Notes under the pieces: model-generated | The model's database searches: none | What the model was told of the DNA's origin: nothing | What the model saw: only the letters and a program-made list of their open reading frames with translations | Made by a program: the position numbers and the translations under genes | IMG/VR virus record: IMGVR_UViG_3300025593_000028 | Location: 31,289-95,288 of that record | From: a virus | Length of the DNA stretch: 64,000 nt | Strand: one strand, 5' to 3' | In this document: piece by piece, positions 22,348 through 64,000 of the stretch | Position numbering within the stretch: position 1 is the first letter of the stretch | Layout: each line of letters starts with the position of its first letter

Positions 22348-22758
22348 CTACTCCTTTGTCGAATTGCAATGCGGAAGATGCTGTGCTACATTAGCAAATA
22401 GAAAACCACACGATGGGCAAAAATCAAGAGCAGATGGCCCCTGCCCCCAGCGGCCCATCGGCACTGGATCTTTGAAATACTGCTCTTTTCTACGGCTGGA
22501 CAGCCACGGGCTCAACAGCTCGAACACGGCACCTACCGCTACAGCTGACCTAGCTCGCCAGCGCCAAGACCAGTCATAGTTGTTGCGGTCAGACGGTGTC
22601 TTTGACCTGATGACATGTCCCACTCCCACTACATGATGAAATCTACGTACTGGCTCCTCATCGCACATGAGTAGAGCCGCAGATGAGCTGGTCCAATGCC
22701 CCTCTCCCTCAAAGAGCCCGGCTGCCCAGGCGGCCTCGGCGTCGCTTACTCCTGCCAC
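22348..22758 (-). CDS. Free-standing LAGLIDADG-type homing endonuclease (single motif)
   Basis: AAWAAGLFEGEG motif; lower GC than neighbours. Confidence 0.7.
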   Translation of the reverse strand: MAGVSDAEAAWAAGLFEGEGHWTSSSAALLMCDEEPVRRFHHVVGVGHVIRSKTPSDRNNYDWSWRWRARSAVAVGAVFELLSPWLSSRRKEQYFKDPVPMGRWGQGPSALDFCPSCGFLFANVAQHLPHCNSTKE

Positions 22759-24020
22759 GGCTCCGGCCTATGCACCCATCCTGAGATCTCTTGCGGCCAG
22801 CGCCGGTAGTCAAGTGAGCAGTTGAACTCGTACTCGCGATCTCCTATCTTCTTGCAGGGCGCACCTGGTTTCCCGTCAAGCGCACGTCCGACCCACCCTG
22901 AGATCCAGCGACCGTTCTCCACTGGAGCGCACTTGCCCACGTACTTCGACGCGTTCCCGACCGAGATGCCCTCCGGCCAGCGCCAAGCGTCCGGCAGGCC
23001 CATGAGCCTCGACAGCTCGCGGATCGTGAGGAATCGCGTCTCGCTCCAGTGCACGAACTTCGACGCGCCGGACCCTGCTACCACGTAGCCCGGCCGGTCG
23101 GGACGGATCCTAGTGGGCCACTGCCAGCCTCGCGGGTCGCGCCAGTTAGACTCGTCGTAGGCGAACCGCTGCAGCAGCGTCGGGGGCGGCGAGTCCTGCT
23201 TGAGGATCGCCTCCTTCATGTTCTCGCCCGGGAGCCAGTCCTGCTCGATCTCGCGCAGCAGCGCCCCGAGCCGCGCCGTGTCTTCGTCGATCGTCACGTG
23301 CGCGTCGACCCGGCCGTCCTCACGGCGCTTCCTCGCGGCCCACTCGCTCGGTTTCCGGCGGATCGCCTGCTCGCCCCACTTGATCGAGAGCTTCTGCAGG
23401 TCACCGATGGCTTCCTCGTACGTCACGACCTTGCGAGGCTCGGGCGCGTCGATCCCGAACGGCACCCGGTGAGCGACCCAGAAGTAACGGTGCCGGAGCT
23501 GCGCCGCCCCGACCGTCGCCCCCGACATCATCACGTGCGTCAAGTCGTAGCTCTGGCCCGACGATCGCTCTAGCTCAGAACGCAACCGAAGCATCAGGTC
23601 TCGCCCGGTCGTGTAGGCCTGCTGCACGGACTCGAAGGCCACGATCTCTGCTCCCGGGGCGCCGTCCTCGCCCGTGCAGCGACCGCCGAACTTGGCTAGG
23701 TCTCTCATGCACGAGTTGATGGGCGAGTCCGGGCCCCTGGAGTTCTCTCCCTTGGAGACGTTCATCAGCGAGAAGCCGCTGCACGGCGGGGTGCCGTGCA
23801 CGTAGCCTACGCCATCGTAGGGCTCCCACTCGCGCTCTGGGGCCTCCTGCACCTCTACTCCCTCGGTGCCCAGCAGCTCAGCGTTCTCGTAGAACGCGTC
23901 ATCACCGAAGCCGCCCGGTAGGGTCGCGCGGCCGACCACGTCAAACTTCTCCGTCTCCACGGTCCCCAGCGTCCAGTGGCCCGCGAGGCCCTGGCAGTCT
24001 ACGGCGCGGTGCTTGCTCAC
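22746..24020 (-). CDS. Divergent DNA cytosine-5 methyltransferase homologue
   Basis: GTPPCSGFS (motif IV), FESV (VI variant), QLRHRYF (VIII), RFLTIRELSRLMGLPD (IX); atypical motif I (DCQGLAG) and X (GKC). Confidence 0.8.
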   Translation of the reverse strand: MSKHRAVDCQGLAGHWTLGTVETEKFDVVGRATLPGGFGDDAFYENAELLGTEGVEVQEAPEREWEPYDGVGYVHGTPPCSGFSLMNVSKGENSRGPDSPINSCMRDLAKFGGRCTGEDGAPGAEIVAFESVQQAYTTGRDLMLRLRSELERSSGQSYDLTHVMMSGATVGAAQLRHRYFWVAHRVPFGIDAPEPRKVVTYEEAIGDLQKLSIKWGEQAIRRKPSEWAARKRREDGRVDAHVTIDEDTARLGALLREIEQDWLPGENMKEAILKQDSPPPTLLQRFAYDESNWRDPRGWQWPTRIRPDRPGYVVAGSGASKFVHWSETRFLTIRELSRLMGLPDAWRWPEGISVGNASKYVGKCAPVENGRWISGWVGRALDGKPGAPCKKIGDREYEFNCSLDYRRWPQEISGWVHRPEPWQE

Positions 24021-30010: not shown

Positions 30011-30589
30011 CTACCCTACGCCGTCCACCCCGAGGAAGCCGGCACGCCCGAGGAACAGGTCTTTCGGCGTGCCCTGGAAGCGGAGGGAGGTGCGCACGGC
30101 GACCCCGTCCGGGAGCTTGCCGAGCTCGTCGAGATCTCGAGTCAGCCCCTCCGACGGCATCAGGAGGCGGGCCTCGGCTACGAGCGCTCGGTTGTCTGCT
30201 TCCTTCACGGTCTCGTGCGATAGAGCCCCGAGGTCGATGTTTAGGCTTTCGAAGATCACTTCGTCTGCGGCCTCGGCGAGTCGCTCGTACTCCGGTCCGA
30301 TCTGGCTCTTGAGCGGCTTTGGCAGGTCTCCCAGGTACGCCTCGTGGGCGTCGTGGAACAGCCCCGCGACGACTACGTCTAGGTCTTGGTCCCACGCTTC
30401 GAGGATCTCGCTCACGAGCACGCAGTGCTGCGCGACCGAGTAGAACTTCGAGGTGTGGCCGCCGAACCGGCACGTGTTGCCCAGCCCGTGCGCGACGTCT
30501 GCTAGGCAGACCTGGCTCGGCTTCGGGTCCGCGTAGTCGTAGATCAACCCCGACGCAGTCTCGATCCTAGTCTCCCCGAACCAAGTCAT
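30011..30589 (-). CDS. HD-domain 5'-deoxynucleotidase (YfbR/YfdR-like)
   Basis: CRFGGH...YSVAQH...LFHDAHEAYLGD. Confidence 0.85.
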   Translation of the reverse strand: MTWFGETRIETASGLIYDYADPKPSQVCLADVAHGLGNTCRFGGHTSKFYSVAQHCVLVSEILEAWDQDLDVVVAGLFHDAHEAYLGDLPKPLKSQIGPEYERLAEAADEVIFESLNIDLGALSHETVKEADNRALVAEARLLMPSEGLTRDLDELGKLPDGVAVRTSLRFQGTPKDLFLGRAGFLGVDGVG

Positions 30590-32295
30590 CCTCCGAGCCA
30601 CCTCCGCATCGTGTCCTCGTCCCGGACGATCTCCTCCAGGAGCTCTAGCTTCGTGCCGTACGTATCGAGCACGTCTTTGTCCACCGTATCGGCGGCTACG
30701 ATGTCTATCGTCAGGAGCCGCCCCTCTCGCCCGGGCCGCTGGGCGCGCTCTTCGGACTGCGCGTTCTTGACCGCAGACCACGAGCGCTCGAGGTACACCT
30801 GCGCGTCGGCGCGCGAGAGGTTGATGCCCTCCGCTCCGGCTCCGAAGGTGACGAGCAGCACCTGCAGGTCTCCGTCCTGGAAAGCGGCGCGATTGCGCTC
30901 CCGCTGCGCGGGATCGACGGTGCCGGTGAACTGCCCGCAGGACACGCCGATCTTCTCGAGCCGGGCGGCAGCGAGCTCGATCAGCTGGCGGCTCTCGGCG
31001 AAGACCACGATCTTGTCGTCCCCCAGCTCTTCGACCACGTCCACGAGGTCGTCGACCTTGCTCGACGGCTCTTTGAGTTCTACGTTACCGTCGTCGTCGA
31101 TCTTCCCAGTCGCGCCTGCGAGCTGGCGCAGACGGCCCATGCGCTGCATGGGGTTCGACGCCATCAGCACCCCGCCTTCCAGCTCTACCAGCATCTCTTT
31201 CCTGAGCGAGTCGTACGCTTTGCGCTGCTTCGGCGCTAGGTCGACGACCCTCGTGGTGGGAGGCAGCTTGTCGGGCAGCTGCGGCAGGATGAGCTTCTTA
31301 GGCCGCCTGATCAACCTCGGGTCGAGGAAGCGAAAGAGCTCGTCCCTGGTGTCCCCGCGCAGCCCTACGACCTCCATGCGGCCGAACGGATTCCAGCGCA
31401 TGAGGCCGTAGCGCTCGACCCACTTCGTCTTAGACGGGTACTCGTCCGGGGCCACGAAGCGCATGACCGCCCACAGGTCCTCCGGCGTGTTGGCCACCGG
31501 GCTGCCGGTCAGCGCAAACCTGTACGTGGCCTTGTCGCCCACCGCCCAGAGCGCTCTTGTCTGCTGCGCCTTCGGCGACTTGGCTCGGTGCGCCTCGTCG
31601 GCGATCACCGTCTTGAGCCCCATCTCGTTGAGCTCCTTTAGCTCCTTCTCCTTGTCCTTGAGCCGGATCGAGCCGTAGCCAGCGAGGCGGCTGTGTAGTT
31701 TGAGCGCCTCCCAGTTGATGACGTACACCTGGGCCTCCGCGGCGAGCGCCTCGCGGCGCTTCTTCGCGCTACCGGCGACGACTGAGACGTCGACCCCTGG
31801 CCACCAGGTAGCGAACTCGTTGCGCCAGTGCGGCTTGACGCTGTTCGGCGCGACCACCAGCGCGGGGAACGGGTCGTCTAGGCGCTTGAGCGCGCATATC
31901 GTCATCGGCGTCTTGCCCGCGCCCATCGGGTCGCAGTTGAGTGCTTGGCGCGCGGTGCTCATGAAGCCCACGCCCGACCTCTGCAGCGGCGAGAGCCTCG
32001 GCTCGTCTACGTCTGGGCAGTCTCCGGCGTCCCTCAGCGCCATGCACGGCGTCACGCGGAGCTCGAGCACCTGCCGCGCGAGCCCCTCTAGCTCTGGCTC
32101 GATCACGAGCCTGTCGCCGAACACGCCTCGCAGCTGCTGCATCGCGGCCCACGACAGCGGGGCGACCCAGGTGCGCTCCGCTTGGTTCCACGTCGCGCCG
32201 GGTACGCCGTCGCGTACGTTCTCCTTGTCCTGGTAGCCGGCGCCGACCTCGATCTTCTGGTCGTCGCGCAGTCCAACGTGTACCGGCTCGTTCAC
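30586..32295 (-). CDS. SNF2-family helicase
   Basis: DPMGAGKT, DEAH, LTGSP, EGINL, QSEERAQR. Confidence 0.9.
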   Translation of the reverse strand: MNEPVHVGLRDDQKIEVGAGYQDKENVRDGVPGATWNQAERTWVAPLSWAAMQQLRGVFGDRLVIEPELEGLARQVLELRVTPCMALRDAGDCPDVDEPRLSPLQRSGVGFMSTARQALNCDPMGAGKTPMTICALKRLDDPFPALVVAPNSVKPHWRNEFATWWPGVDVSVVAGSAKKRREALAAEAQVYVINWEALKLHSRLAGYGSIRLKDKEKELKELNEMGLKTVIADEAHRAKSPKAQQTRALWAVGDKATYRFALTGSPVANTPEDLWAVMRFVAPDEYPSKTKWVERYGLMRWNPFGRMEVVGLRGDTRDELFRFLDPRLIRRPKKLILPQLPDKLPPTTRVVDLAPKQRKAYDSLRKEMLVELEGGVLMASNPMQRMGRLRQLAGATGKIDDDGNVELKEPSSKVDDLVDVVEELGDDKIVVFAESRQLIELAAARLEKIGVSCGQFTGTVDPAQRERNRAAFQDGDLQVLLVTFGAGAEGINLSRADAQVYLERSWSAVKNAQSEERAQRPGREGRLLTIDIVAADTVDKDVLDTYGTKLELLEEIVRDEDTMRRWLGG

Positions 32296-32753
32296 TCGCC
32301 GTCCCCTTCCATCGCAGACATCCTACGGGCTACCAAGCTGCGAAAGTCGGAATCGTGCTGGCACAGGTACAGCAGCAGGTGGCGGCTCGCATCGCGGGCG
32401 TGGTCGGTGCCCACGGTCCACCACCCCATCGCACGAAGCTTGTCGTCGTTCGAGAAGCCCTTGGCCTCGGCGGGGGTCTGCTTGTTCGAGAACTCGAGGC
32501 CGTGCTCGCGGCACAGGTGCCGCAGGTAGCCGACCTGCTCGACGGAGGAGAGCACCTGCTCCCCCTTCCTGATCGTGTGCTGCGTGATCGTGATGCGCTC
32601 GACGACCACCGCTCCGCCGAAGCCCGACCGAAGCGCCTCTCGCGCCCAGTCCATGGCCTCATCTTCGGGCGCGTCCCACGCGCTGTGCTCGCCATCCCTC
32701 CAGAGCGCGAGCCCGGTCTGGAACCCGGTGTCGAGAGCGAGCACGTCAGGCAT
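32292..32753 (-). CDS. RuvC-like Holliday junction resolvase
   Basis: LALDTGFQTG, VVVE, HARDA. Confidence 0.75.
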   Translation of the reverse strand: MPDVLALDTGFQTGLALWRDGEHSAWDAPEDEAMDWAREALRSGFGGAVVVERITITQHTIRKGEQVLSSVEQVGYLRHLCREHGLEFSNKQTPAEAKGFSNDDKLRAMGWWTVGTDHARDASRHLLLYLCQHDSDFRSLVARRMSAMEGDGE

Positions 32754-34497
32754 ACAGCGCCCCCCAGCGCTTAGTCGTGTCTACGTCCACGGTGAGCGGG
32801 ACCTTGAAGTGCTCGGTCTCCGGCATCACCTCTTCGATCGTGGCCACGGCTTCGTCTAGGCTGTCGTCCGGCACGCTGAACACGACCTCGTCGTGGATCG
32901 GCAGCAGGATCTGCGGGCCCAGCCCCGCCTGCGCGAGCTCGATGATCTTCAGCTTGAGCACCTCTCCGGCCGTGCCCTGGTCGCGGTAGTTGACCCCCTT
33001 GTAGGCTTCGTCCTTGGGGACGAAGAGCCTGCGGCCGAACTCCGTGTGAACCTCGCCCCACCCCTTGTCGCCGCCCCGCGACTCGTGTACTTCCTGCGAC
33101 ACCTGTTCTTGGAACGCGGCGACGCGAGGGAACAGCGCGTCGTACCGCTCGAGCACCGAGGCGGCCTCGCTTTCGCTCAGCCCAGCCGAGTACGCGAACT
33201 TGGTCACGCCGGCGCCGTAGATCTTGGCGTACCCTGACGTCTTCGCGACGTTCCGCTGCTCGTACACAACTTCCTCGAGGCTCTGCAGGCCGAAGATTTC
33301 CTGCGCAGTCCACTTGTGCAGGTCTTCGCCGGAGCAGAACCGAGAGATCATGTTCTCCTCGTCCGCCATGTGAGCGAGGAGCCTGAGCTCGATCCCAGAG
33401 AAGTCGGCCGAGATCAGGGTCTCACCCTCGTCCGCGATGAAAGCGTCCCTGCCGACCGAGGACTTGGGCAGGGTCTGCAGCGCGGGTTCGGTGATCGACA
33501 TCCTCCCGGTCTTCTGCGCGCCGAGCACACGAACCGACGGGTGCACGCGGTCGTCTGCCTCGATCTTCAGCAGCTTGTCGAAGTAGCTGCCTTTCAGCTT
33601 GCTGCACTCCCGGTAGCGACGCATGTCGTGGCACTCCGGGATCTTTCCCTCCCAGTACTCGAGCACCTCGTCGTCCGCTGCGAGGTGGCCCTTCTCGGTG
33701 CGTTTGGTCAGCGTCGCGCCACGCGACTGCAGGAACTCGACGACCTGCTTCGGCGCGTTCGGGTTGCACGGCAGCTTCGGCGACAGTGCTGCGATCTCGG
33801 CCTCCAGCTCGAGCGACGTCTTACGGCAGAAATCTACGTCCACCCGCATCCCGCGCAGCTCTGCGTCGCGCAGGGCGTGGATCGAGCCGAGCTCGATGTC
33901 GTAGGAGCGCCGGTACCTGTCGCGCACTTTGGGCCAGAGCTTCTCCGCGATCCTGCACGTGAGCACCGGGTCCAGCGCACCGTACTGCCAGTACGGCGGG
34001 AAGTCCAGCGGCACCGTGTCCCAGTCCCAGCCCTGCTTCTTCATGGCCTCGTGCAGCACGACCTGTCCGGCCAGCGCCTTCTTGTCTACGAGTCGAGATG
34101 CCACGGGCTTCAGGCCCACCGGCAGGTGGGAGGTCACGAGCTGCGCCATGACCATCGTGTCCTCGGCGAGGTGCTGCGGCACGGTCACGCCGTCGCGCTT
34201 CAGGAACGCCGAATCGAAGATCAGGTTGTGCGCGACCAGCGGCGACGAGTCGTACGCCTCGATCAGCTCTTTGAACGCGCCGTAGAAGCTGTTAGGTCCC
34301 TCGCACGGGATCGCCCAGCCGTGGTCTCTGTCGCCGAGCTGCGCGAGCCGCACCCTGTCTCGGCCGAGGTTCACCCCAGTGGTCTCGAGGTCGAACCCGA
34401 GCCAGTCCCTCGACCGGCCCAGCCACTCGCGTAGATCCAGCAGCTCGTCGGTGGACTCGACGAGCGTCAGGCCCACGCGCTCAAGTCCCTCAGACAC
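32746..34497 (-). CDS. polA: Family A DNA polymerase (3'-5' exonuclease + polymerase)
   Basis: DLETTG, HNLIFD, TGRMS..P.LQ, ADFSGIELR, AKTSGYAKIYG, IHDE. Confidence 0.93.
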   Translation of the reverse strand: MSEGLERVGLTLVESTDELLDLREWLGRSRDWLGFDLETTGVNLGRDRVRLAQLGDRDHGWAIPCEGPNSFYGAFKELIEAYDSSPLVAHNLIFDSAFLKRDGVTVPQHLAEDTMVMAQLVTSHLPVGLKPVASRLVDKKALAGQVVLHEAMKKQGWDWDTVPLDFPPYWQYGALDPVLTCRIAEKLWPKVRDRYRRSYDIELGSIHALRDAELRGMRVDVDFCRKTSLELEAEIAALSPKLPCNPNAPKQVVEFLQSRGATLTKRTEKGHLAADDEVLEYWEGKIPECHDMRRYRECSKLKGSYFDKLLKIEADDRVHPSVRVLGAQKTGRMSITEPALQTLPKSSVGRDAFIADEGETLISADFSGIELRLLAHMADEENMISRFCSGEDLHKWTAQEIFGLQSLEEVVYEQRNVAKTSGYAKIYGAGVTKFAYSAGLSESEAASVLERYDALFPRVAAFQEQVSQEVHESRGGDKGWGEVHTEFGRRLFVPKDEAYKGVNYRDQGTAGEVLKLKIIELAQAGLGPQILLPIHDEVVFSVPDDSLDEAVATIEEVMPETEHFKVPLTVDVDTTKRWGALYA

Positions 34498-34939
34498 CCC
34501 CGTCGCGCTCCCAGGCCTTCAGCAGCTCCTTGTCCTTCGGCTTGAAGGAGCGGTCTCCCCACGCCACGAAACGGTATGCTTCCACGGTGTACTCGCCGCA
34601 GCCCGGTAGCTCGCCGACCCACTCGTGGGGCGGTCGGATCCCGAACGAGACGACGCATTCCCATTCGTGGAACTTGTTGCTGACGATGTTGAGCGTGTCT
34701 GCCCGGCGAGACTGGAGCCCGCACGGCGAGATCACAGATTCAACCTCGGCGCGGTCTGCTAGGGCGAGCTCCGCCGGTTCTGGCCAGCGCGAGAACAGCT
34801 CGTCCAAGACTGGGCGCACCTGCGAGCCGGAGGTCTGCTGGCACATGACGGTCGAGACGACCACGCGCCACGGCATAAAGGTCCGGTCCTCTCCCGCGTA
34901 CTCCTCCTGGATCAGCAGCCCGTCGCGCACGGCGTGCAC
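34490..34939 (-). CDS. MBD4-like HhH DNA glycosylase (no Fe-S cluster)
   Basis: LIQE...PWRVVVSTVMCQQTSG...RWP...PCGL...RRA...LPGCGEY...YR...PKDKEL parallels the MBD4 catalytic domain; start approximate. Confidence 0.75.
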   Translation of the reverse strand: MHAVRDGLLIQEEYAGEDRTFMPWRVVVSTVMCQQTSGSQVRPVLDELFSRWPEPAELALADRAEVESVISPCGLQSRRADTLNIVSNKFHEWECVVSFGIRPPHEWVGELPGCGEYTVEAYRFVAWGDRSFKPKDKELLKAWERDGGV

Positions 34940-35892
34940 CACCCCACCTTCCCGCTTTCTGCGTAGATGTCGGGCCAGTGGTCCTGATCGTCTGGGAGCA
35001 CGTAGCGGCAACTCGGGCAGATCCTGCCCCCCGACTGCGTACCGTCTAGCACGTCCTCGTACCAACGATGCGCGCTCGGCACTACGTCTGGCTCAGAGGA
35101 GATGCCGGTGATCGCCGCGAAGCTCTGCTGCACCCACCTCCAGCGGTCCAGCGCGACCTCTTCACGCAGCCGCTCGCCCACAGGGAGCGGATACGCGGGC
35201 GGCTGCTCGAACTCCTCGTCGCCGCCGGCCGACCACGTGGAGATGTCGTCCCTGTCCACGTAGGCGTGCATGCTGTAGCAGTGGTGCGAGTAGCGGCCCG
35301 GCTCGACGCCGAGCGCGAACGCCAGCGCGCGCTGCGCGGCCGTGAACTGCATCCAGTCGTACGGCGTCCCCCACACCAGGTCCTGCGACCTCATCGTCGT
35401 GAAGGCCTCTAGCTTGTCGTCGCGGATCTGGTAGAAGAGGTTGAGCGTGCACGGCACGTCCTTAGACGGCCTCTCGAGCTCGCGGCCGAGCCAGATCGTG
35501 ACGCCGGCCTGCCTAGAGTCCCGGTCGGAGCAGAGCTGCGACACCACGCGGGGCCACTGCAGCGCTACCCTGGGCCCGTACGCACCGAGCAGCCTGTGGC
35601 CCGCTGGGCCCTCCACGAACATCGCGAAGTTCTTTGCGCAGTTGACGAGTTGGTCCGCGTCCGAGTACCCGCCCACGAGGTTGGTCGCCTCGGCCGCTCC
35701 GATCTTCGCTACCAGCTTCCTGCCGACCCCGGTGGGCGCCGGGCGAGTCGGATCCTCTAGTACGGTCGTCACTGCGGGGAGCTCGAGCGTCCTGTGCCCC
35801 CTCGGCCGCACCTCGCGGCCCCGCTCGAGCAGAGCGTCTCGCACGCGTAGGTAGAGCTCGGACGCGCTGCCTCCCTGGAACACCTCAGCCAT
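34912..35892 (-). CDS. Thymidylate-synthase homologue, probable dCMP hydroxymethylase/methylase
   Basis: GAYGPR, DSRQA, DVPCT, MRSQDLVWGTPYD (Asp at the Asn specificity position), SMHAY; C-terminal CxxC...CxxC. Confidence 0.85.
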   Translation of the reverse strand: MAEVFQGGSASELYLRVRDALLERGREVRPRGHRTLELPAVTTVLEDPTRPAPTGVGRKLVAKIGAAEATNLVGGYSDADQLVNCAKNFAMFVEGPAGHRLLGAYGPRVALQWPRVVSQLCSDRDSRQAGVTIWLGRELERPSKDVPCTLNLFYQIRDDKLEAFTTMRSQDLVWGTPYDWMQFTAAQRALAFALGVEPGRYSHHCYSMHAYVDRDDISTWSAGGDEEFEQPPAYPLPVGERLREEVALDRWRWVQQSFAAITGISSEPDVVPSAHRWYEDVLDGTQSGGRICPSCRYVLPDDQDHWPDIYAESGKVGWCTPCATGC

Positions 35893-36500
35893 CAGCGCAG
35901 CAGCCCCGCGAACGCGGGGTCCTCTAGATCGTCTGCGACGACGCAGTACTCTGGGGTAGCCGAGCAGTTCTTCTCCTCGTTGATCGCCGCCGTGGCCACG
36001 TCGTCTGCGTGCACCGTCCCCATGTCGAACTCCATTGTCCTCGCGGCCTGCTGCTCGAGGAACCTGAACTGCTGCCGGAACATCGCGTCGGCCGCCGGCA
36101 CGAGCGCGGTCGGGAGAGGCTCCGGCGGTCGAGCCTCTACGAACTCGGCGTGGATCTCGTCTAGCGGCCGTTCGCACATGACGAACAGCGCTCCCTTCGA
36201 CGCGTACGCTGCGACTAGCAGCGCGTACTCGCCGGGGGTCAGAGCCGGGGTGCGCGAGAAGAGCGTGGGCCAGACCGACTCGCCCACGAACGACCTGTCG
36301 AGCACGACGTTCCTGCTCGCATTCGGGACATACTTGAGGATCGGCTCGAGGTACTCGTCCACGGCGCGCGGGCTCTCCGGGCGTTCAGCGTGGATCACCC
36401 GCGTGCCACGGCCGTTGAGCCGGCTCAGGGTCTGGGGCATCTTGTCGGCCAGCGTCGACTTGCCGGTCCGGTCTACTCCCTCGATGACGATGAGTGCCAC
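35892..36500 (-). CDS. dNMP (thymidylate-type) kinase
   Basis: IEGVDRTGKST P-loop; VLDRS motif; coupled to the TS homologue. Confidence 0.85.
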   Translation of the reverse strand: MALIVIEGVDRTGKSTLADKMPQTLSRLNGRGTRVIHAERPESPRAVDEYLEPILKYVPNASRNVVLDRSFVGESVWPTLFSRTPALTPGEYALLVAAYASKGALFVMCERPLDEIHAEFVEARPPEPLPTALVPAADAMFRQQFRFLEQQAARTMEFDMGTVHADDVATAAINEEKNCSATPEYCVVADDLEDPAFAGLLR

Positions 36501-36653
36501 AGATCCCTCCCCGTTGCTTCCTTCCGGGAGACATCGTATCAGGTCTACCGAGAAGATGAGAGCGGCGCTGGGGCGTCGATGGAGGGGGGTCAACCTGACG
36601 CGGAAAGGAGGTGACGTCAGGCGACGCGAGCGCCCCGCGCCTGCTCACTTAGA

Positions 36654-37556
36654 TCATACGCCCCGTCGGTACGGATCGTCGTCCGGGTCTTCGGCGTCCT
36701 CGAACGCCTGGAACACCGCCTGCGCCTTGGCCTCCTCCTCGTCCATGCCCGCATCCTCGTTCTCCCACTTGAGCCGGTAGCGGTTGATCGTGACGAGTGC
36801 TGCCTTCTGCTCTTCCTGCACGACGCGGCTGCTCACGCCGAGCGCCTCGGCCACGTCGTTCCTGAGCATGGACGGCCCTTCGAAGCCGAAGCGCATCTCC
36901 ACGACGCGTCGCTGCCGCTCAGACAGTTGGTCCATCGCGGCACGCAACCACGGGTACGTGTCGATCGCGAGCTGCGCTGGGTCGACCGCGTTCGGGTCCG
37001 CGATCGTCGTGTGCCTCCCGTCGCGTCCGTCCTCGTCGTCGCCGACCGACGCGTCGAGCGACACGCTGGCGCGCGGGCCATCGACCGCCTCGACCGCTTC
37101 GTCGACGTCTATCTCCAGGGCCTCTGCCGCCTCCTCCAGAGTCTCGTCGTGCTCGTCCATGCGCTTCTTGAGCTTCCTGCGCGCTCGCTGGAGCTGCCCG
37201 GGCACCTTGATGAGGTTGCCGTCCGGGCCGGCGACGTAGCGCTGCAGGTGCTGTTTGATCCACCACGTCGCGTAGGTGGAGAATTTGAAGCCCTTCTCCG
37301 GATCGAACTTTTCGAGTGCTTTCATCAGCCCGAGCGTGCCCTCCTGCACCAGGTCCTCCATGCTGTGGCCCATGCGCGCGTACCGCTTCGCGATCGAGAT
37401 CACGAGCTTGACGTTGTGCTCGATCATGAGTCGGTGCGCCTCTCTGTCGCCGGCCTGCGCGGCCCGCGCTAGCTCTTTCTCGCGGTCCCCGCCGAGCACC
37501 TCCCGCGTGCCGATCTCCCTGATGAAGGACCTGAACTCATCCCCGTGCTCGCTCAC
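36654..37556 (-). CDS. RNA polymerase sigma factor, sigma70 family (RpoD/RpoS-like regions 1.2-4)
   Basis: HNVKLVISIAKRY, DLVQEG..GL..A.EKFDPEKGFKFSTYATWWIKQ, SLD, region-4 HTH. Confidence 0.92.
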   Translation of the reverse strand: MSEHGDEFRSFIREIGTREVLGGDREKELARAAQAGDREAHRLMIEHNVKLVISIAKRYARMGHSMEDLVQEGTLGLMKALEKFDPEKGFKFSTYATWWIKQHLQRYVAGPDGNLIKVPGQLQRARRKLKKRMDEHDETLEEAAEALEIDVDEAVEAVDGPRASVSLDASVGDDEDGRDGRHTTIADPNAVDPAQLAIDTYPWLRAAMDQLSERQRRVVEMRFGFEGPSMLRNDVAEALGVSSRVVQEEQKAALVTINRYRLKWENEDAGMDEEEAKAQAVFQAFEDAEDPDDDPYRRGV

Positions 37557-38530
37557 CAATCTCCCTTCGCGTTTGTCAGCAGTACGTCCAAGTCTAGCCC
37601 GCAAGACCGGAGGTCGTCCCCGTCGGGCAGCGCCACCCGCCTCGCGTCTACGCCCGCCTCGCGGAGCCGCGCCGCCCACTTCTTCGACGACTCGCGGCCC
37701 GCGTCGTCCTCGTCCATGCCTAGATATACTACCTCGTACCTAGCGAGCTCTTCGACCCAATCGTCGGCCGGCGCAGCGCCTGCTCCAGATGGCAGTGCCA
37801 GCACGTCGGTCGGCAGGTACAGCGGCCGCGCGTCGGCCCACACGGCGTCGGACTCGCCCTCGCACAGCAGCACAGCGCGAGCACCGCCGACCCTCCAGCA
37901 CCCGTACAGGTGCTTCAGCGGGCCGAACGTCTTCCAAGACCTGTCCCTGTAGCGCACCTTGACAGCAGACAGCGACCCGTCCGGGGCACGGTGCGGGATC
38001 ACCACGTTCGCGGCCTCGTCGAGGCCCCAGCCCCAGTCCAGCAGGTGCTCGTCCCACGCCGTGCGCACGGCTTGATCGTCGTGGTCGCCCACGAACCCAT
38101 ACGCGTAGGACAGCAAGCCGACGTCCGAGTGCCCGCGGGCCCTCTCCCGGCACTCGGCGATCCTCGCGTCCCACGCAGCGTCTGGTACTAGCGCCGCTCT
38201 CCGCTTCGGGGGGTCCAGCTTGAGGTCGTCCGGCAGCTCCTCGGCCAGCGCGCTGAGCTCGAGCAGCGCCTCGTAGAAGGCCACCCCCCGCACCCGTCGC
38301 ACTAGCTCTATGACGTCTACCGCTGCCCCACAGGCTCTACAAAAGGCCCAGGGGAAGCCGTCTTCACCTGGGCCCATCAACTCGAAGTTTGGATTGTTCT
38401 TGTCGTCGTGGAACGGGCAGAGCGCCCGGCCGTCCTGGCCGAACTTGACGCCCACCTCCGCTGCCGCGACCTCCATCGGTACTCGCGACTTGATTTCGTC
38501 CGGCTCGTAGACGTACCGGAGCTCGGTCAC
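37553..38530 (-). CDS. DNA primase (CHC2 zinc finger + TOPRIM)
   Basis: CPFHDD...FCRACG; CEGESDA; MDEDDAG. Confidence 0.88.
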   Translation of the reverse strand: MTELRYVYEPDEIKSRVPMEVAAAEVGVKFGQDGRALCPFHDDKNNPNFELMGPGEDGFPWAFCRACGAAVDVIELVRRVRGVAFYEALLELSALAEELPDDLKLDPPKRRAALVPDAAWDARIAECRERARGHSDVGLLSYAYGFVGDHDDQAVRTAWDEHLLDWGWGLDEAANVVIPHRAPDGSLSAVKVRYRDRSWKTFGPLKHLYGCWRVGGARAVLLCEGESDAVWADARPLYLPTDVLALPSGAGAAPADDWVEELARYEVVYLGMDEDDAGRESSKKWAARLREAGVDARRVALPDGDDLRSCGLDLDVLLTNAKGDW

Positions 38531-40880: not shown

Positions 40881-42218
40881 CTAGTCGTCTGCTGGTACGC
40901 CGACGGGGGCCATCGCTACGCCGACCGGGCGCAGCTTCTCGAGCACCTCGATCGTGTCGCCCTGCGACTCGAGCACGTCCGCGAGCCGCTTGTACGCGCC
41001 TGGCGCCTCCTCCGCTCCTGAGCCGCGGAGCTCTACCCCTGCCACCTGCGTGACCTGCGCGTGCTCCGCGTTCCAGTCGATCTCGCCCTCCGCCATCTGT
41101 ACCCAGCGCTTGCTGAGCGTGGGGTGGCCACAGCTCGGGCACTTGCCGTCCTCGGGCTTGTGCGTGTGCGGTGGCTGGAACCAGTCGCAGTCTCGGTTGT
41201 TGCACGACCACCGCTTCTTCTGCTTGCCAGCGGCCCGCGACCTGCTCATCGCGCGGCCCGCGCCGTGCACCGTGGAGAACAGAGCGCGCTGCTGCAGCTC
41301 CGTCTCCTCCACAGCAGTACCGACGTCGAACGAACCGCGGCGCGCGCCGCAGAGGATCACGCTCTCCTCTCCCATCGTCGATCCGACGAACCCCTCCTGG
41401 CCCGGGAAGGCGGGGGTGCAGCCCTTGCGCACTACCCAGAAGGTCTCGCCCCGGTGCTCCTCCTCCCACGCGAAGTTGTGGTGGTTGTGGACCTCGTGCT
41501 CCGCCTCGGTCCCGAGGATCTCCAGCACCTCGGATACGACGACGTCGCGGCCCGCGTACGCGTACTCGCCGGCGAGCGACATCGCCGAGAGGTACGACTG
41601 GCCCTCCTCGGAGTCGGTCCTGAACGTGACCGGAGACCCCATGAGGTCCTCCTTGCACTCGCCCTTCGTGCCGAAGGGCTTGCCGCGCGAGACCCACAGG
41701 AACCCGTTCGCGGTCGTGTGCCCGAAGCCACGCGAACCGAAGTGGACGCCGATCCAGAGCTTGCCGTCGTCACCCTCGAAGAGGTCCACGTAGTGGTTGC
41801 CGCCACCTACGCTGCCGAGCTGGTGCGCTGCCTTGTCGAGCAGCGACCGCTGCGGGCTGAAGTCCGCCTCCCTGATCTTGTCGAGCACCGGGTGGTCCGC
41901 GTCGAGGCCGCCTTCACCCGGGCCGAACGGGATCCGATCGTAGATCTCGTCCATGACCCCGGGCACGTCGACGTCCTCGACGAGGAGCGGGGTGCGCACG
42001 GCCTTGTTCCCGCACCCGATGTCGTAGCCGACGCCGGACACGGAGATCCGCTCGCGGTACGCGATGGCCATGCCGACGGGCTGGGCGTACCCGAGGTGGT
42101 TGTCGGCGCACAGCACGCCGATCGACCCCTGCTGGGCGTCGAGACAGTTACGCGCCTGCTCGAGCGTCTTCTCGTCTGCCTCGCCGAAGACGGTCAGGTC
42201 GTAGTAGCGTCCACTCAC
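40881..42218 (-). CDS. rtcB: RtcB RNA ligase with zinc-ribbon insertion
   Basis: DNHLGY, VGYDIGCG, GGGNHY, HFGSRG, HNHHN, HGAGR, EEAPGAYK. Confidence 0.92.
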   Translation of the reverse strand: MSGRYYDLTVFGEADEKTLEQARNCLDAQQGSIGVLCADNHLGYAQPVGMAIAYRERISVSGVGYDIGCGNKAVRTPLLVEDVDVPGVMDEIYDRIPFGPGEGGLDADHPVLDKIREADFSPQRSLLDKAAHQLGSVGGGNHYVDLFEGDDGKLWIGVHFGSRGFGHTTANGFLWVSRGKPFGTKGECKEDLMGSPVTFRTDSEEGQSYLSAMSLAGEYAYAGRDVVVSEVLEILGTEAEHEVHNHHNFAWEEEHRGETFWVVRKGCTPAFPGQEGFVGSTMGEESVILCGARRGSFDVGTAVEETELQQRALFSTVHGAGRAMSRSRAAGKQKKRWSCNNRDCDWFQPPHTHKPEDGKCPSCGHPTLSKRWVQMAEGEIDWNAEHAQVTQVAGVELRGSGAEEAPGAYKRLADVLESQGDTIEVLEKLRPVGVAMAPVGVPADD

Positions 42219-42749: not shown

Positions 42750-43211
42750 CTAGTCGAGGACTACGTCGTAGTCCACGCCGTGTTGATCGAAACTCCTCTG
42801 CAGCCTCCCGTAGTCCTCCGCGCCCATGCACGCGTAGACCAGCTCTAGGTAGATCCTCGCCATCCACGGGTCGTGGCTCTGCGAGCCGAACCGCGCGTCT
42901 GCCAGCACGTGCGCTACCTCGTGACACAGGATCAGCGGCCTCATGTGGTCGCTCATCATGTCGCAGACCCCGGCGCCCTTCACGGCGTCGAAGCCGCCCA
43001 CGCTACCCCCCTGGCCGTCTGGATGCTCGAAGACCTCCACGCGCAGCACGTGCCTGAAATCTCCCTCCCACCTCCGATAGCGGTCGCGCATGCGGTCCAC
43101 GAAGTCCTGCGCCTCGGCTAGGAGCATCTTGTGCCCCCAAGCCGGAGCGCCATCGCCGGGGAACTCGATCCGGCGCTCGGCCTCGTAGAGGCTATCCTGC
43201 TGGCACGGCAT
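42750..43211 (-). CDS. TIGR04338/Rv0185-like HExxH metallohydrolase
   Basis: QQDSLYEAE N-terminus; LCHEVAH...SHDP.MARIYLELV. Confidence 0.7.
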   Translation of the reverse strand: MPCQQDSLYEAERRIEFPGDGAPAWGHKMLLAEAQDFVDRMRDRYRRWEGDFRHVLRVEVFEHPDGQGGSVGGFDAVKGAGVCDMMSDHMRPLILCHEVAHVLADARFGSQSHDPWMARIYLELVYACMGAEDYGRLQRSFDQHGVDYDVVLD

Positions 43212-43887
43212 TTTCTAGGTCCTTCCCCTTGAGCTTGCACACGAGCCGGCCCCCGTTCCTGCTCAGCAGGCCGAGCGGGGCCTGCGCTACTAGGCCCTCT
43301 GGCTCGACGTCGCCGCCCCAGCGAGACTCGAAGCCGAGTTCCACGAGCTTGTGCATCCCGTCTAGCGTGCCGTAGTCGACGGTCGGCACGGACTCGATGC
43401 CGAGCGACTCGGCGATGCCGTGGACGTCGGCGGGCTTGAGCCACCAGCGGCCGATGCGGACGTCGAACAGCACGAAGTCCGCGCCGTCTGCTTTGTAGTT
43501 TCCCCCGCCCTTCTGGATCTTCGCTCCGTAGCCCTCGCCGTAGAGGGTGACCAGCGCTCGGCCGTCCTCGTCGTCGCCGGCATCGGGGAACACCTGCTCG
43601 AAGAGCTGCTCGCCGGGGTCGCCGCCGAAGAGCTCCTGCAGCCGCTCGACGAGGTGCATGGGCATCTGGGCGCGGTCGGTCTTGCCGCCGAAGCGCACCT
43701 TCTGCCCGTCCCACCCCACGCGCACGTTCGTGCCGTCGACCTTCTCGGTGAACCGCCAGGGCAGGTCGGCCAGCATCTCGAGCTCCGGGCTCGAGAAGGA
43801 CCCGACCAGCAGCCTGTGCGGCTTGTCCGACTCGCGCTTCCACAGCGTCGGGATCTTGTGGTACTTGCCGTGCATGCCCTCGCTCAC
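43192..43887 (-). CDS. ATP-dependent RNA ligase (Rnl2-like)
   Basis: EKVDGTN, YGEGYG, FVLFD, EGLV, KLK nucleotidyltransferase motifs. Confidence 0.85.
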   Translation of the reverse strand: MSEGMHGKYHKIPTLWKRESDKPHRLLVGSFSSPELEMLADLPWRFTEKVDGTNVRVGWDGQKVRFGGKTDRAQMPMHLVERLQELFGGDPGEQLFEQVFPDAGDDEDGRALVTLYGEGYGAKIQKGGGNYKADGADFVLFDVRIGRWWLKPADVHGIAESLGIESVPTVDYGTLDGMHKLVELGFESRWGGDVEPEGLVAQAPLGLLSRNGGRLVCKLKGKDLENAVPAG

Positions 43888-44211
43888 GTCAGCCCCTCCT
43901 CGTTGGCGTCGTAGCACCTGATCATCTCGCCGTCGTGCCGTACCAAGATCGACTTCCCGCCCTCGCCTTCGTACGCGGTCACGATCGCCTGGCCGAGCCC
44001 GGACACGATCAGTTCTCGCAGCTCTGTCTGCAGTTCTTCTACGGTCACTCGAACGCCTTCGCTCCCTTGCCGCGGCAGCTGCGCCGCGGGTTGTTCGGGT
44101 CCGCGTTCCTCTTGCGGCCCCTCGTGTGCGTCACCTGCCTGCCGTCCCTAGCGCAGTACGAGCACGGGCCGCGGCTCCCCCGCCGCTTTTTCGACGCCCT
44201 CGGGCCGGGCA

Positions 44212-62658: not shown

Positions 62659-63231
62659 TTACTGGTCGAAGTATCCGTCCGGCGCGGGCTCGCCGTAGAC
62701 CCGTTCGTACTTCTCCGGCGAGTCGATCGTGCGCTCCTCGATACCGAGCCCGTCGAGCACCCGGTCCTGCAGGGCGTGGAACCACACGCGCTCCGGCGCC
62801 GTGTCGAGCAGGCCGCGCACCCTCTCGAGCTCGTCGAGGACGTGCTCCTGCACGTCTCCGCCGTCCGGGACGAGCGGCTCCTCGCCGGCCACCGGCTCGA
62901 CGTTGAAGACGGCGTCGTGCAGCCTGCGCTCGATCGTCGCCCTGCGGGTCGGGGACAGCGGGGGGTCCGCCGCGTGGCGGACGGCGCGGCGGCACTCGGA
63001 CTCCGGCAGCTCGCAGTCCACGATCCCCGGTGGCACGACGCGATACCCGGAGGCGGAGAGCCTCGCGTGTACCTTTTTGCGGAGCACCGAGTCGCCGTCG
63101 GTGCTGTAGACCAGCCGCTGCGGCTCGCCGCGGGTGCGTTCGACCGAGGCCCGCTTCTCCTCCGGGGGCTTCTCGGTCGTGCCCACGCGGGTCACGCCGC
63201 TGCCGGCTATGAAGAAGATCTGGGTGCTCAC
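62659..63231 (-). CDS. Possible degenerate GIY-YIG/T5orf172-like protein
   Basis: QIFFI...RVGTT...KKVHARL resembles the YxI-KIG-T pattern without the catalytic residues. Confidence 0.4.
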   Translation of the reverse strand: MSTQIFFIAGSGVTRVGTTEKPPEEKRASVERTRGEPQRLVYSTDGDSVLRKKVHARLSASGYRVVPPGIVDCELPESECRRAVRHAADPPLSPTRRATIERRLHDAVFNVEPVAGEEPLVPDGGDVQEHVLDELERVRGLLDTAPERVWFHALQDRVLDGLGIEERTIDSPEKYERVYGEPAPDGYFDQ

Positions 63232-63563
63232 ACCTCGCACCCGCAGCCCTTCGCGCGCAGGGCGGCGAGTTGGTCGTCCCAGGGCTCGGGCCAGTGCACG
63301 ATCGAGCTCGCCGAGTCCAGAGAGATCGGGCTGTGATGGTTGTACCCGCGGTGTTTCATCTCGTAGGCGAGAGTGTAGTGTCGGTTGAACAGCGCGTTGA
63401 TCCCGTCGTCGGTCATCCAGCGCTTCACCTCTGGATGGTGCTCGTACGGAGACCCGCTGCGCTCTCCGGTGATGATCCGCCAGATGGCGTGTAGCTCGCG
63501 GTGCTCTCCCAGGAGGTGCTGGCGGCAGAGCTTGGACGGCGGTACGGCGTCCCAGATCCTCAC
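63228..63563 (-). CDS. Pyrimidine-dimer DNA glycosylase (DenV/Pyr_excise family)
   Basis: RIW...P..LCRQHLLGEHRELH...HHPE..RW...EM..RGY.H. Confidence 0.8.
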   Translation of the reverse strand: MRIWDAVPPSKLCRQHLLGEHRELHAIWRIITGERSGSPYEHHPEVKRWMTDDGINALFNRHYTLAYEMKHRGYNHHSPISLDSASSIVHWPEPWDDQLAALRAKGCGCEV

Positions 63564-64000
63564 CTGGGCTTCACCCCGCTCCCACCGCACGTCGGGCACG
63601 GCTCCTCCGCATCGCGCCAGCGGCCGAACAGCTCGCCCTCGCCGAGGTCGTGCTCGGCGTCTGCTTCTACCGTCCGCCCGAAAGCGTTGCCCTCCTCTGA
63701 GACGTAGAGCACGATCGCCACCTCTCGCTTCTGCATCGTGGCGAAGTCGCGCGGGCGTTCGATCCGCGCGCCGACCGGGAACTCGCCGGCACTCTTCAGC
63801 TCGCTAGGCACTGAGGCTCGACCTCCTCGTAGGGGTGCCGCGCCTTGAACAGGCGGAAGCCGTCCGCCGCGCACTCGAACGAGACCGCGAAGGTCTCACT
63901 CTCTGGGATGTCCTCGGTGCGGATGAAGTGCCTCACCGCCTCGTAGATCGAGCCGTCCGAGGTCCTGAACCTCGCACCGGGGACGATGAAGAAGTCCAGC

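Follow-up and report, generated by a model that had tools for sequence, protein, structure and literature searches.

The 5-hydroxymethylcytosine (hmC) pathway of phage T4 comprises gp42, which hydroxymethylates deoxycytidine monophosphate (dCMP), the deoxynucleoside monophosphate (dNMP) kinase gp1 and the dCTPase gp56. To our knowledge the known derivatives of hmC are sugars or a carbamoyl group, and all known hypermodifications made by a kinase and a transferase start from 5-hydroxymethyluracil (5hmU). Repair is linked to C5 methylation of cytosine in E. coli, where Vsr accompanies Dcm, and on plasmid pFV1, where the glycosylase Mig.Mth accompanies M.MthTI. Glycosylases are also coupled to family A DNA polymerase (Pol A) in the uracil-DNA glycosylase (UDG)-Pol A fusions of thymidine-hypermodified phages (PMC13697223). 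The locus described here lies in a 64,000-nucleotide stretch of viral DNA (the window), bases 31289-95288 of the single 95,288-bp viral contig IMGVR_UViG_3300025593_000028, and consists of genes for a nucleotide kinase, a thymidylate synthase (TS) homologue, a helix-hairpin-helix (HhH) DNA glycosylase and Pol A. It is best explained, at about even confidence, as a pre-replicative hmC operon combined with post-replicative tailoring and a mismatch glycosylase.

The contig has a G+C content of 66% and belongs to the direct terminal repeat class of IMG/VR, and its CheckV completeness is 100%. A blastn search against phage records gave no match. The best phage relatives of Pol A are found in Micrococcus, Microbacterium, Arthrobacter and Gordonia phages, and because identity to these actinophage polymerases is only 33-37%, the phage is taken to be novel and probably to infect an actinobacterial host.

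Operon layout and the predicted dCMP hydroxymethylase

The original prediction had read the order kinase, TS homologue, HhH glycosylase and Pol A from overlapping or abutting genes, and all four were located on the minus strand at the positions given there (Table 1). The TS start codon overlaps the kinase stop codon, the glycosylase gene overlaps the 3' end of the TS gene by ~30 nt, and the start of the Pol A gene overlaps the 3' end of the glycosylase gene by 8 nt. Every one of the four genes has a Shine-Dalgarno-like sequence or an overlap with its neighbour, with GGGGAGGG preceding the kinase start and GGGAAGGTGGGG the glycosylase start. A promoter-like extended -10 element, CCTGATACGAT, is placed after the hairpin that trails the sigma-factor gene, and no terminator-like site was seen on the minus strand from 37800 to 30000. 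From the overlaps and the single promoter-like element the four genes are predicted to form one co-transcribed operon. The polymerase gave Pfam matches to DNA_pol_A (5.5e-72) and DNA_pol_A_exo1 (2.7e-12).

The TS homologue matched the Pfam family Thymidylat_synt (PF00303, 1.4e-11) and is the sole TS in the complete genome. Its best PDB sequence match was the CMP hydroxymethylase MilA (4.3e-13), and PDB 9iqu was also matched (3.8e-10). The peptide RSQDLVWGTPYD is present, and its Asp is residue 179 (codon 35356-35358), which aligned with N177 of E. coli ThyA and D179 of T4 gp42; the claim that Asp stands where TS enzymes specific for deoxyuridine monophosphate (dUMP) have Asn was therefore borne out. 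The other key residues are Asp145, Cys148, Thr149 and Asp171, equivalent to L143, C146, H147 and D169 of ThyA. The alignment with ThyA and gp42 revealed that R166, S167, D169, H207 and Y209 (E. coli numbering, used from here on) are all kept together with the catalytic Cys146. The signature D143/C146/T147/D169/D177 is identical to that of gp42, and the overall identity between the two proteins is only 20%. The corresponding residues are L143/H147/N177 in ThyA, N147/N177 in the dUMP hydroxymethylases SPO1-type gp29 and M6 gp58, and N143/P147/D177, with W80 kept, in the Xp12 methylase.

The N177D substitution selects dCMP (PMC13326640; PMC8670742), and positions 177 and 147 were the best at separating cytosine-modified from unmodified metavirome contigs (PMC8670742). 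L143D/E accompanies hydroxymethyl and not methyl products, the acidic residue at 143 being connected with water access, and D169N is a mark of flavin-dependent 5-hydroxy-dCMP synthases (PMC13326640). Because D143/T147/D169/D177 match gp42 exactly and the other aligned enzymes differ, the TS homologue is very probably a dCMP hydroxymethylase, predicted to give 5-hydroxymethyl-dCMP (5hm-dCMP). A dUMP-type TS is disfavoured by T147/D177 in place of N147/N177, and a 5-hydroxy-dCMP synthase of the type of RB69 gp48, DLP3 gp80 and the HY126 enzyme was rejected on account of the Asp kept at 169. An Xp12-type dCMP methylase was rejected because the TS homologue has F80, D143 and T147 where Xp12 has W80, N143 and P147. 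Of the two products first proposed, 5-hydroxymethyl- or 5-methylcytosine, the cytosine-type assignment and the hydroxymethyl product are thus favoured, while the methyl product is disfavoured by D143, T147 and F80. No dihydrofolate reductase (DHFR) was present among the Pfam matches of the scanned open reading frames (ORFs), although no search was aimed at DHFR.

The TS homologue also carries a C-terminal extension of ~110 aa (residues ~215-326, window 34915-35250, minus strand) that ends in CPSC...CTPCATGC. This CxxC...CxxC extension is a possible zinc ribbon and is absent from T4 gp42 and most aligned relatives.

The kinase gave only weak P-loop matches in Pfam, to PPK2 and Tmk. A profile built from 10 kinase homologues retrieved SPbeta YorR first (8.7e-11), followed by PPK2 and thymidylate kinases, and YorR was also the top fold match of the AlphaFold2 model (predicted local distance difference test, pLDDT, 88; TMq 0.66-0.67, TMt 0.76-0.78). 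The P-loop EGVDRTGKST and the DR motif are invariant in the kinase alignment (A5). Profile and model thus agree with the earlier assignment as a dNMP kinase and indicate a nucleoside-monophosphate kinase fold of the Tmk/YorR/PPK2 kind; the role proposed for the enzyme is the phosphorylation of 5hm-dCMP. Kinase homologues lie directly upstream of a TS of the same clade in phages DSL-LC01, GMA2, AXL3 and PW916, and of the clade's 80 IMG/VR loci, 63 have such a gene next to the TS. Since the pairing is seen in the four named phages and in these loci, kinase and TS(D177) form a conserved module. In Pseudoxanthomonas phage PW916 (L005:2300-3300) the P-loop kinase gene directly upstream of the TS is unannotated, and the TS bears the annotation deoxyuridylate hydroxymethyltransferase despite its cytosine-type D177/T147 signature.

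The MBD4-type glycosylase and its genomic associations

The glycosylase is a single domain of 150 aa, without an N-terminal methyl-CpG-binding domain, and its sole Pfam match at E<=0.01 was HhH-GPD (PF00730, 1.2e-9). Comparison with PDB sequences gave E-values of 1.3e-8 for MBD4, 3.5e-5 for MIG, 5.5e-4 for MutY and 1.5 for EndoIII, and the alignment with MBD4 extends through the catalytic PxD at an identity of ~24%. The AlphaFold2 model (pLDDT 93) superposed over its full length on MBD4 chains with template modelling (TM) scores of 0.71-0.80, and the fold ranking placed MBD4 first, ahead of MIG, MutY and EndoIII. The matched MBD4 structures include complexes with G:T and G:5hmU. Among the key residues, Asp137 (codon 34532-34534) aligned with the Asp of the MBD4 PED motif and GCGEY with GIGKY; the others are Tyr118 after GCGE, Leu76 in CGL and Gln12. 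Where EndoIII has its Lys, the phage protein has Tyr118, a sign of a monofunctional enzyme, and the chain ends 13 residues past the catalytic Asp, so that there is no iron-sulphur (Fe-S) cluster module. The glycosylase family comprises 1490 representatives at E<=1e-3. G75, G116, Y118 and D137 are invariant in a 60-sequence alignment (A3), and the family motifs LIQE, PWR.LV..LLN.T, RPLGL, LPGxGxYAxDSYRIF and PxDKEL closely echo MBD4.

The identification of the enzyme as MBD4-like rather than EndoIII/MutY-like and free of Fe-S, made originally from motifs, was upheld by the sequence E-values and by the fold ranking against MBD4, MIG and EndoIII. An EndoIII/MutY identity was ruled out by the missing C-terminal 4Fe-4S module, the Tyr at the Lys position and the weaker E-values. 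By sequence and model the phage protein is a stand-alone MBD4-type glycosylase, predicted to be monofunctional. Its nearest homologue (P0002) shares 52% identity. Long homologues have in common a C-terminal domain of ~260 aa without a Pfam match, for which an atlas match of 0.77 was uninformative, and a TS hidden Markov model gave no signal of a fused TS-like domain in the 46 proteins of >=200 aa.

One position that sets the phage enzyme apart from MBD4 is the Arg finger, which we take to be human R468, filling the gap left by the flipped base: it is Gln here (CQQTSG versus LNRTSG), and most family members have Arg or Asn-x-Thr. This replacement counts against repair of the MBD4 kind and would suit an HhH-GPD protein that is not a repair enzyme at all, acting instead as a base-flipping accessory of the modification machinery or serving as a weapon against the host through base excision from its unmodified DNA. 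Genes for aGPT-Pplase and the amino acid:DNA transferase (AADT) are often paralogous pairs with a predicted glycosylase-like HhH fold (PMC8989533), which would also be in keeping with such a function. Against it, the Pfam match is to HhH-GPD only, and the lack of any match to the AADT and aGPT-Pplase families led to the rejection of a paralogue of those proteins. Throughout the family the catalytic Asp is conserved without exception, as is the Tyr of the MBD4/MIG type; the model fits MBD4 along its entire length; and a second complete phage with the same tailoring cassette (L038) does not have the gene. A function outside repair is accordingly considered very improbable.

Glycosylase homologues were found in 17 of 50,697 phage-database records. 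Thirteen of these belong to Xp12 and similar phages; there the glycosylase, at a distance of one gene from a TS(Asp) of the D177 type, is accompanied by a dCMP deaminase and DHFR, near Pol I. The Xp12 protein (MT664984.1, L001:5887-6369; QNN97216.1) is annotated "hypothetical protein", and no mention of an MBD4-like glycosylase was found in the Xp12 genome paper. In IMG/VR, a TS lies within ~5 kb at 4 of 38 glycosylase loci, in each case one of the DCTDD type and never one of the Asn type. Related-locus searches with the glycosylase alone or the TS alone gave no loci, the MetaGPA supplements hold no PF00730 entry, and the literature searched contained no discussion of TS(Asp) genes accompanied by a stand-alone glycosylase of the MBD4 type. 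Such a pair is present here, in the 5-methylcytosine phage Xp12 and on a few metavirome contigs.

Whether the enzyme serves the modification pathway has to be weighed against an ordinary repair function, in which the TS homologue and kinase make a modified dC while the glycosylase is a base excision repair enzyme against deamination, acting on U or T opposite G, that this 66% G+C phage, rich in repair genes, acquired and that landed beside the polymerase gene, with no particular link to the modified base. Several findings weigh against a dedicated service and fit general repair. Of the 80 viral loci of this TS clade, 0 contain the glycosylase, and neither of the complete genomes to which L038 and L020 belong encodes it. 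In the closest relatives the slot between TS and Pol A is filled by an HNH gene (L019) or by small ORFs (L036) that matched neither glycosylase nor deaminase. Across the 38 glycosylase loci, 34 are without a classical TS within 8 kb, and the genes that recur nearby include those for Fpg/Nei, an NT5C-like protein, ribonucleotide reductase and two ThyX paralogues. Two fecal phage contigs have the glycosylase and no TS in the stretch examined. In other viral contigs the gene stands beside Fpg/Nei or in one open frame with it, the latter in at least one locus of another viral lineage. Other repair genes are present in this phage as well, including a T4 endonuclease V-like glycosylase together with RtcB, an RNA ligase, RlaP and a polynucleotide kinase (PNK) phosphatase, and general repair fits these equally.

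Speaking for a dedicated service, the glycosylase reading frame shares nucleotides with the TS frame at one end and the Pol A frame at the other, and adjacency to TS(Asp) is seen independently in the Xp12 lineage. Every TS near a glycosylase in IMG/VR is of the dCMP type, and a gene this rare among phage records nevertheless stands beside TS(Asp) both here and in the Xp12 lineage. The ordinary-repair explanation is considered possible but rather unlikely. From these sequence comparisons it was concluded that the glycosylase would be no core component of C5-cytosine-modifying modules but an accessory that joined them more than once; its dedication to the modification pathway is plausible, though at somewhat below even confidence. 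The modify-and-repair system of the original prediction is supported in part, by the pairing in Xp12 and by the four dCMP-type TS genes; the TS-clade loci speak against it.

A further idea, that the glycosylase replaces the dCMP deaminase found beside the TS at 70 of the 80 TS(D177)-clade loci, was weakened because L019, L036 and L038 have neither gene in the slot. Among the 38 glycosylase loci (L099-L136; examples are L130:7971-9212, L128:6723-7583, L125:10922-11971 and L118:9760-10818), the NT5C-like protein has an N-terminal domain of no known family, and a 160-aa protein of no known function also recurs.

The putative hypermodification cassette and the proposed pathway

Outside the window, the same genome encodes a cassette of an AADT (Pfam family ADDT), a DSP/PTP phosphatase, a 129-aa ORF and a homologue of the 5-hydroxymethyldeoxyuridine DNA kinase (5-HMUDK) (Table 1). 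With phage M6 as positive control, PF18748 (HMUDK) scored 32.6-32.9 bits (cut-off 27) and PF18724 (ADDT) 27.6-28.7 bits (cut-off 26.2). In L038 (IMGVR_UViG_3300037722_000409, complete, 92 kb), the genes for ADDT, DSP, HMUDK, kinase and TS(D177) are consecutive, and this one-row order ties the cassette to the TS clade. The full order at L038:2147-8894 is C5 methylase, myo-inositol-1-phosphate synthase, HAD hydrolase, ADDT, DSP, HMUDK, kinase and TS. ADDT and DSP also occur together in L038, L144 and L145, and AADT is always paired with DSP. Twenty AADT relatives (P0163-P0182) lie on contigs of up to 99 kb; searching metagenome contigs for AADT yielded short contigs at most. No paper linking a dCMP hydroxymethylase with 5-HMUDK or AADT was found in the literature searched.

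The cassette in this genome lies among late genes, just upstream of an XkdF-type protease and the capsid gene. The inositol-phosphate enzymes of L038 raise the thought that the group transferred there might be a polyol rather than an amino acid.

Neither dCMP deaminase nor MazG was found in the complete genome. With one TS and no dCMP deaminase, the cytosine-type enzyme would be the sole phage-encoded source of a hydroxymethylpyrimidine. Because the AADT/DSP/5-HMUDK cassette is in the same genome, hmC is probably an intermediate and not the end product, which is likely to be a hypermodified hmC. This assignment has points against it. ADDT and HMUDK are weak here, at 27-33 bits compared with 66-160 in M6, and both have been characterised only on 5hmU (PMC8989533). 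The TS of L038 is N143/T147/D177, with Asn at position 143; L144 comes from a complete 64-kb genome in which ADDT-DSP is present without a TS; and no dCTPase was found here, so that replacement of cytosine may be partial.

The characterisation of ADDT and HMUDK on 5hmU only would also agree with hypermodified thymine. In that case the host would deaminate the hydroxymethylated dCMP to the corresponding dUMP, or the TS homologue would accept dUMP; HMUDK and ADDT would act on 5hmU as in M6, ViI and PaMx11, and the glycosylase would police U or 5hmU opposite G, like the UDG-Pol A fusions. The dCMP deaminases adjacent to 70 of the 80 related TS(D177) genes point in this direction, and some such deaminases are reported to act on 5-substituted dC (bioRxiv 10.1101/2024.12.05.627091). 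This genome, however, is without a dCMP deaminase, M6 gp58 and SPO1-type gp29 are both N147/N177 where this TS is T147/D177, and the ADDT and HMUDK copies are far from the thymine-type ones. Hypermodified thymine is on balance judged improbable.

In the favoured cytosine pathway, the operon would be the pre-replicative half, transcribed with the replicative polymerase. The TS homologue would convert dCMP to 5hm-dCMP as T4 gp42 does, the adjacent kinase would phosphorylate the product, host enzymes would make the triphosphate and Pol A would incorporate it. After replication, the DNA kinase of the 5-HMUDK type would first activate the hydroxymethyl group, and the AADT-type transferase, paired with the DSP phosphatase, would attach a nucleophile to give a hypermodified cytosine. 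The glycosylase would act as a monofunctional pyrimidine-mismatch enzyme, most likely excising 5hmU, thymine or uracil opposite G. These bases would arise by deamination of modified or residual cytosines in a genome of this G+C content, and the later steps of base excision repair would fall to enzymes of the host or the phage. Substrates, products and the specific service of the glycosylase to the modified base are inferred throughout from sequence. A more detailed version is put forward only tentatively: hmC, replacing cytosine fully or in part, would be phosphorylated on DNA by the 5-HMUDK-like kinase, AADT and its dedicated DSP would append an amino acid or other nucleophile, and the glycosylase, translated together with the polymerase, would be a dedicated proofreader of the deaminated base (5hmU or a derivative) opposite G, with the same role for its Xp12 homologue.

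A predicted cytosine-type hydroxymethylase accompanied by homologues of 5-HMUDK and AADT, which the second complete phage has in one row, suggests a class of cytosine hypermodification not described before. If true, this would be the first hypermodified cytosine of the kinase/transferase type, and the new DNA-modifying enzymes would be of interest for restriction evasion and biotechnology. Confirmation of the repair component would mean that phages with C5-modified cytosine carry their own repair for deamination products invisible to UDG, and would provide a source of small, Fe-S-free glycosylases for T or 5hmU opposite G.

Other genes and comparison with described systems

The remaining features are collected with those of the operon in Table 1.

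Table 1. Positions of the operon, the cassette and other genes of the phage; window coordinates unless marked as genome coordinates
Feature	Position	Strand	Details
Nucleoside-monophosphate kinase	35895-36500	minus	GTG 36500, stop 35892-35894, 202 aa
TS homologue	34915-35892	minus	ATG 35892, stop 34912-34914, 326 aa
HhH-GPD glycosylase	34493-34942	minus	GTG 34942 or 34939, stop 34490-34492, ~150 aa
Family A DNA polymerase with 3'-5' exonuclease	32749-34497	minus	GTG 34497
Promoter-like extended -10 element	36533-36543	minus	~30 nt upstream of kinase start; read from sequence
Cassette ADDT, DSP/PTP phosphatase, 129-aa ORF, HMUDK	genome 25499-28009 (L011:7499-10009)	plus	
ADDT amino acid:DNA transferase (AADT)	genome 25499-26524	plus	PF18724; outside window
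5-HMUDK homologue	genome 27398-28009	plus	PF18748; outside window
Sigma-70 family factor, full length (regions 1.2, 2, 3, 4)	36657-37679	minus	immediately upstream of operon, then hairpin
HD-domain phosphohydrolase (YfbR-like)	30014-30781	minus	weak Pfam HD/YfbR-like, 3e-5 to 1e-3
C5 cytosine DNA methyltransferase homologue	22749-24020	minus	PF00145 9.7e-11; PC motif residue 79
T4 endonuclease V-type pyrimidine-dimer glycosylase	63231-63599	minus	PF03013 4.9e-24; second DNA glycosylase

The HD phosphohydrolase lies downstream in the same gene string, with homologues of 43-44% identity in L019 and L036, and M6 has an HD hydrolase beside its hydroxymethylase; the protein is a candidate nucleotide-pool enzyme. 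The C5 methyltransferase is related to the one that heads the L038 operon at family level only (20% identity, 2.8e-10). Cytosine with a 5-substituent might also come from this enzyme, which would make it a possible client of the T:G glycosylase. Such a gene seems unexpected in a genome whose cytosine may be replaced; residual C could be what it methylates. The RNA-repair genes RtcB and RNA ligase are in the window at 40884-42218 and 43195-43917, on the minus strand. The left arm (genome 1-18646, outside the window) encodes RlaP, a PNK 3'-phosphatase/HAD protein and a metallophosphoesterase.

The T4 hmC pathway resembles this locus in the catalytic Cys and in D143/T147/D169/D177 of its hydroxymethylase, and the TS homologue here adjoins a nucleotide kinase near the replicative polymerase. 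Unlike in T4, the kinase is YorR/Tmk-like, with no match to T4 gp1 seen, and no dCTPase/MazG, dCMP deaminase or, among the Pfam matches of the ORFs scanned, glycosyltransferase was found. The likely follow-up chemistry here is of the kinase/transferase type and not glucosylation.

The thymidine hypermodification systems of M6, ViI, PaMx11 and phiW-14 share with this phage 5-HMUDK and AADT above the Pfam cut-offs, a TS-family hydroxymethylase and a nucleoside-monophosphate kinase. They differ in having N147/N177 where the hydroxymethylase here has T147/D177, and in the dCMP deaminase that is absent here. No pyridoxal phosphate-dependent, radical-SAM or flavin tailoring enzymes were found in the Pfam scans of this phage, DSP is always paired with AADT, and AADT and HMUDK are very divergent.

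The Xp12 group (Bradleyvirinae), with 5-methylcytosine DNA, has the same small glycosylase (28-29% identity) near TS(D177) and Pol I. Its TS is N143/P147 with W80 and is accompanied by DHFR and dCMP deaminase, which fits a reductive methylase, and no ADDT or HMUDK was found there.

Like the phage enzyme, the catalytic domain of mammalian MBD4/MED1 (PDB 4ew4, 6vjw and 4e9e, among others) spans ~140 aa, lacks an Fe-S cluster and has the Leu wedge, the Tyr that follows GxG and the catalytic Asp. The phage enzyme differs in being free of the methyl-CpG-binding domain, in having Gln for the Arg finger and in the overlap of its gene with that of Pol A. MIG (1kea) was the second-best structural family for the phage glycosylase.

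In Vsr-Dcm and Mig.Mth-M.MthTI, as would be the case here, a base modifier is coupled to an enzyme that removes the product of its deamination or mis-incorporation. In those systems and in the UDG-Pol A fusions the repair enzyme accompanies a post-replicative DNA methylase or has a UDG fold; at this locus it would accompany a hydroxymethylase pathway working at the nucleotide level. The locus is unlike these precedents in joining a predicted cytosine-type hydroxymethylase to kinase/transferase genes, in the pairing of AADT with DSP and in the predicted MBD4-type fold of its glycosylase.

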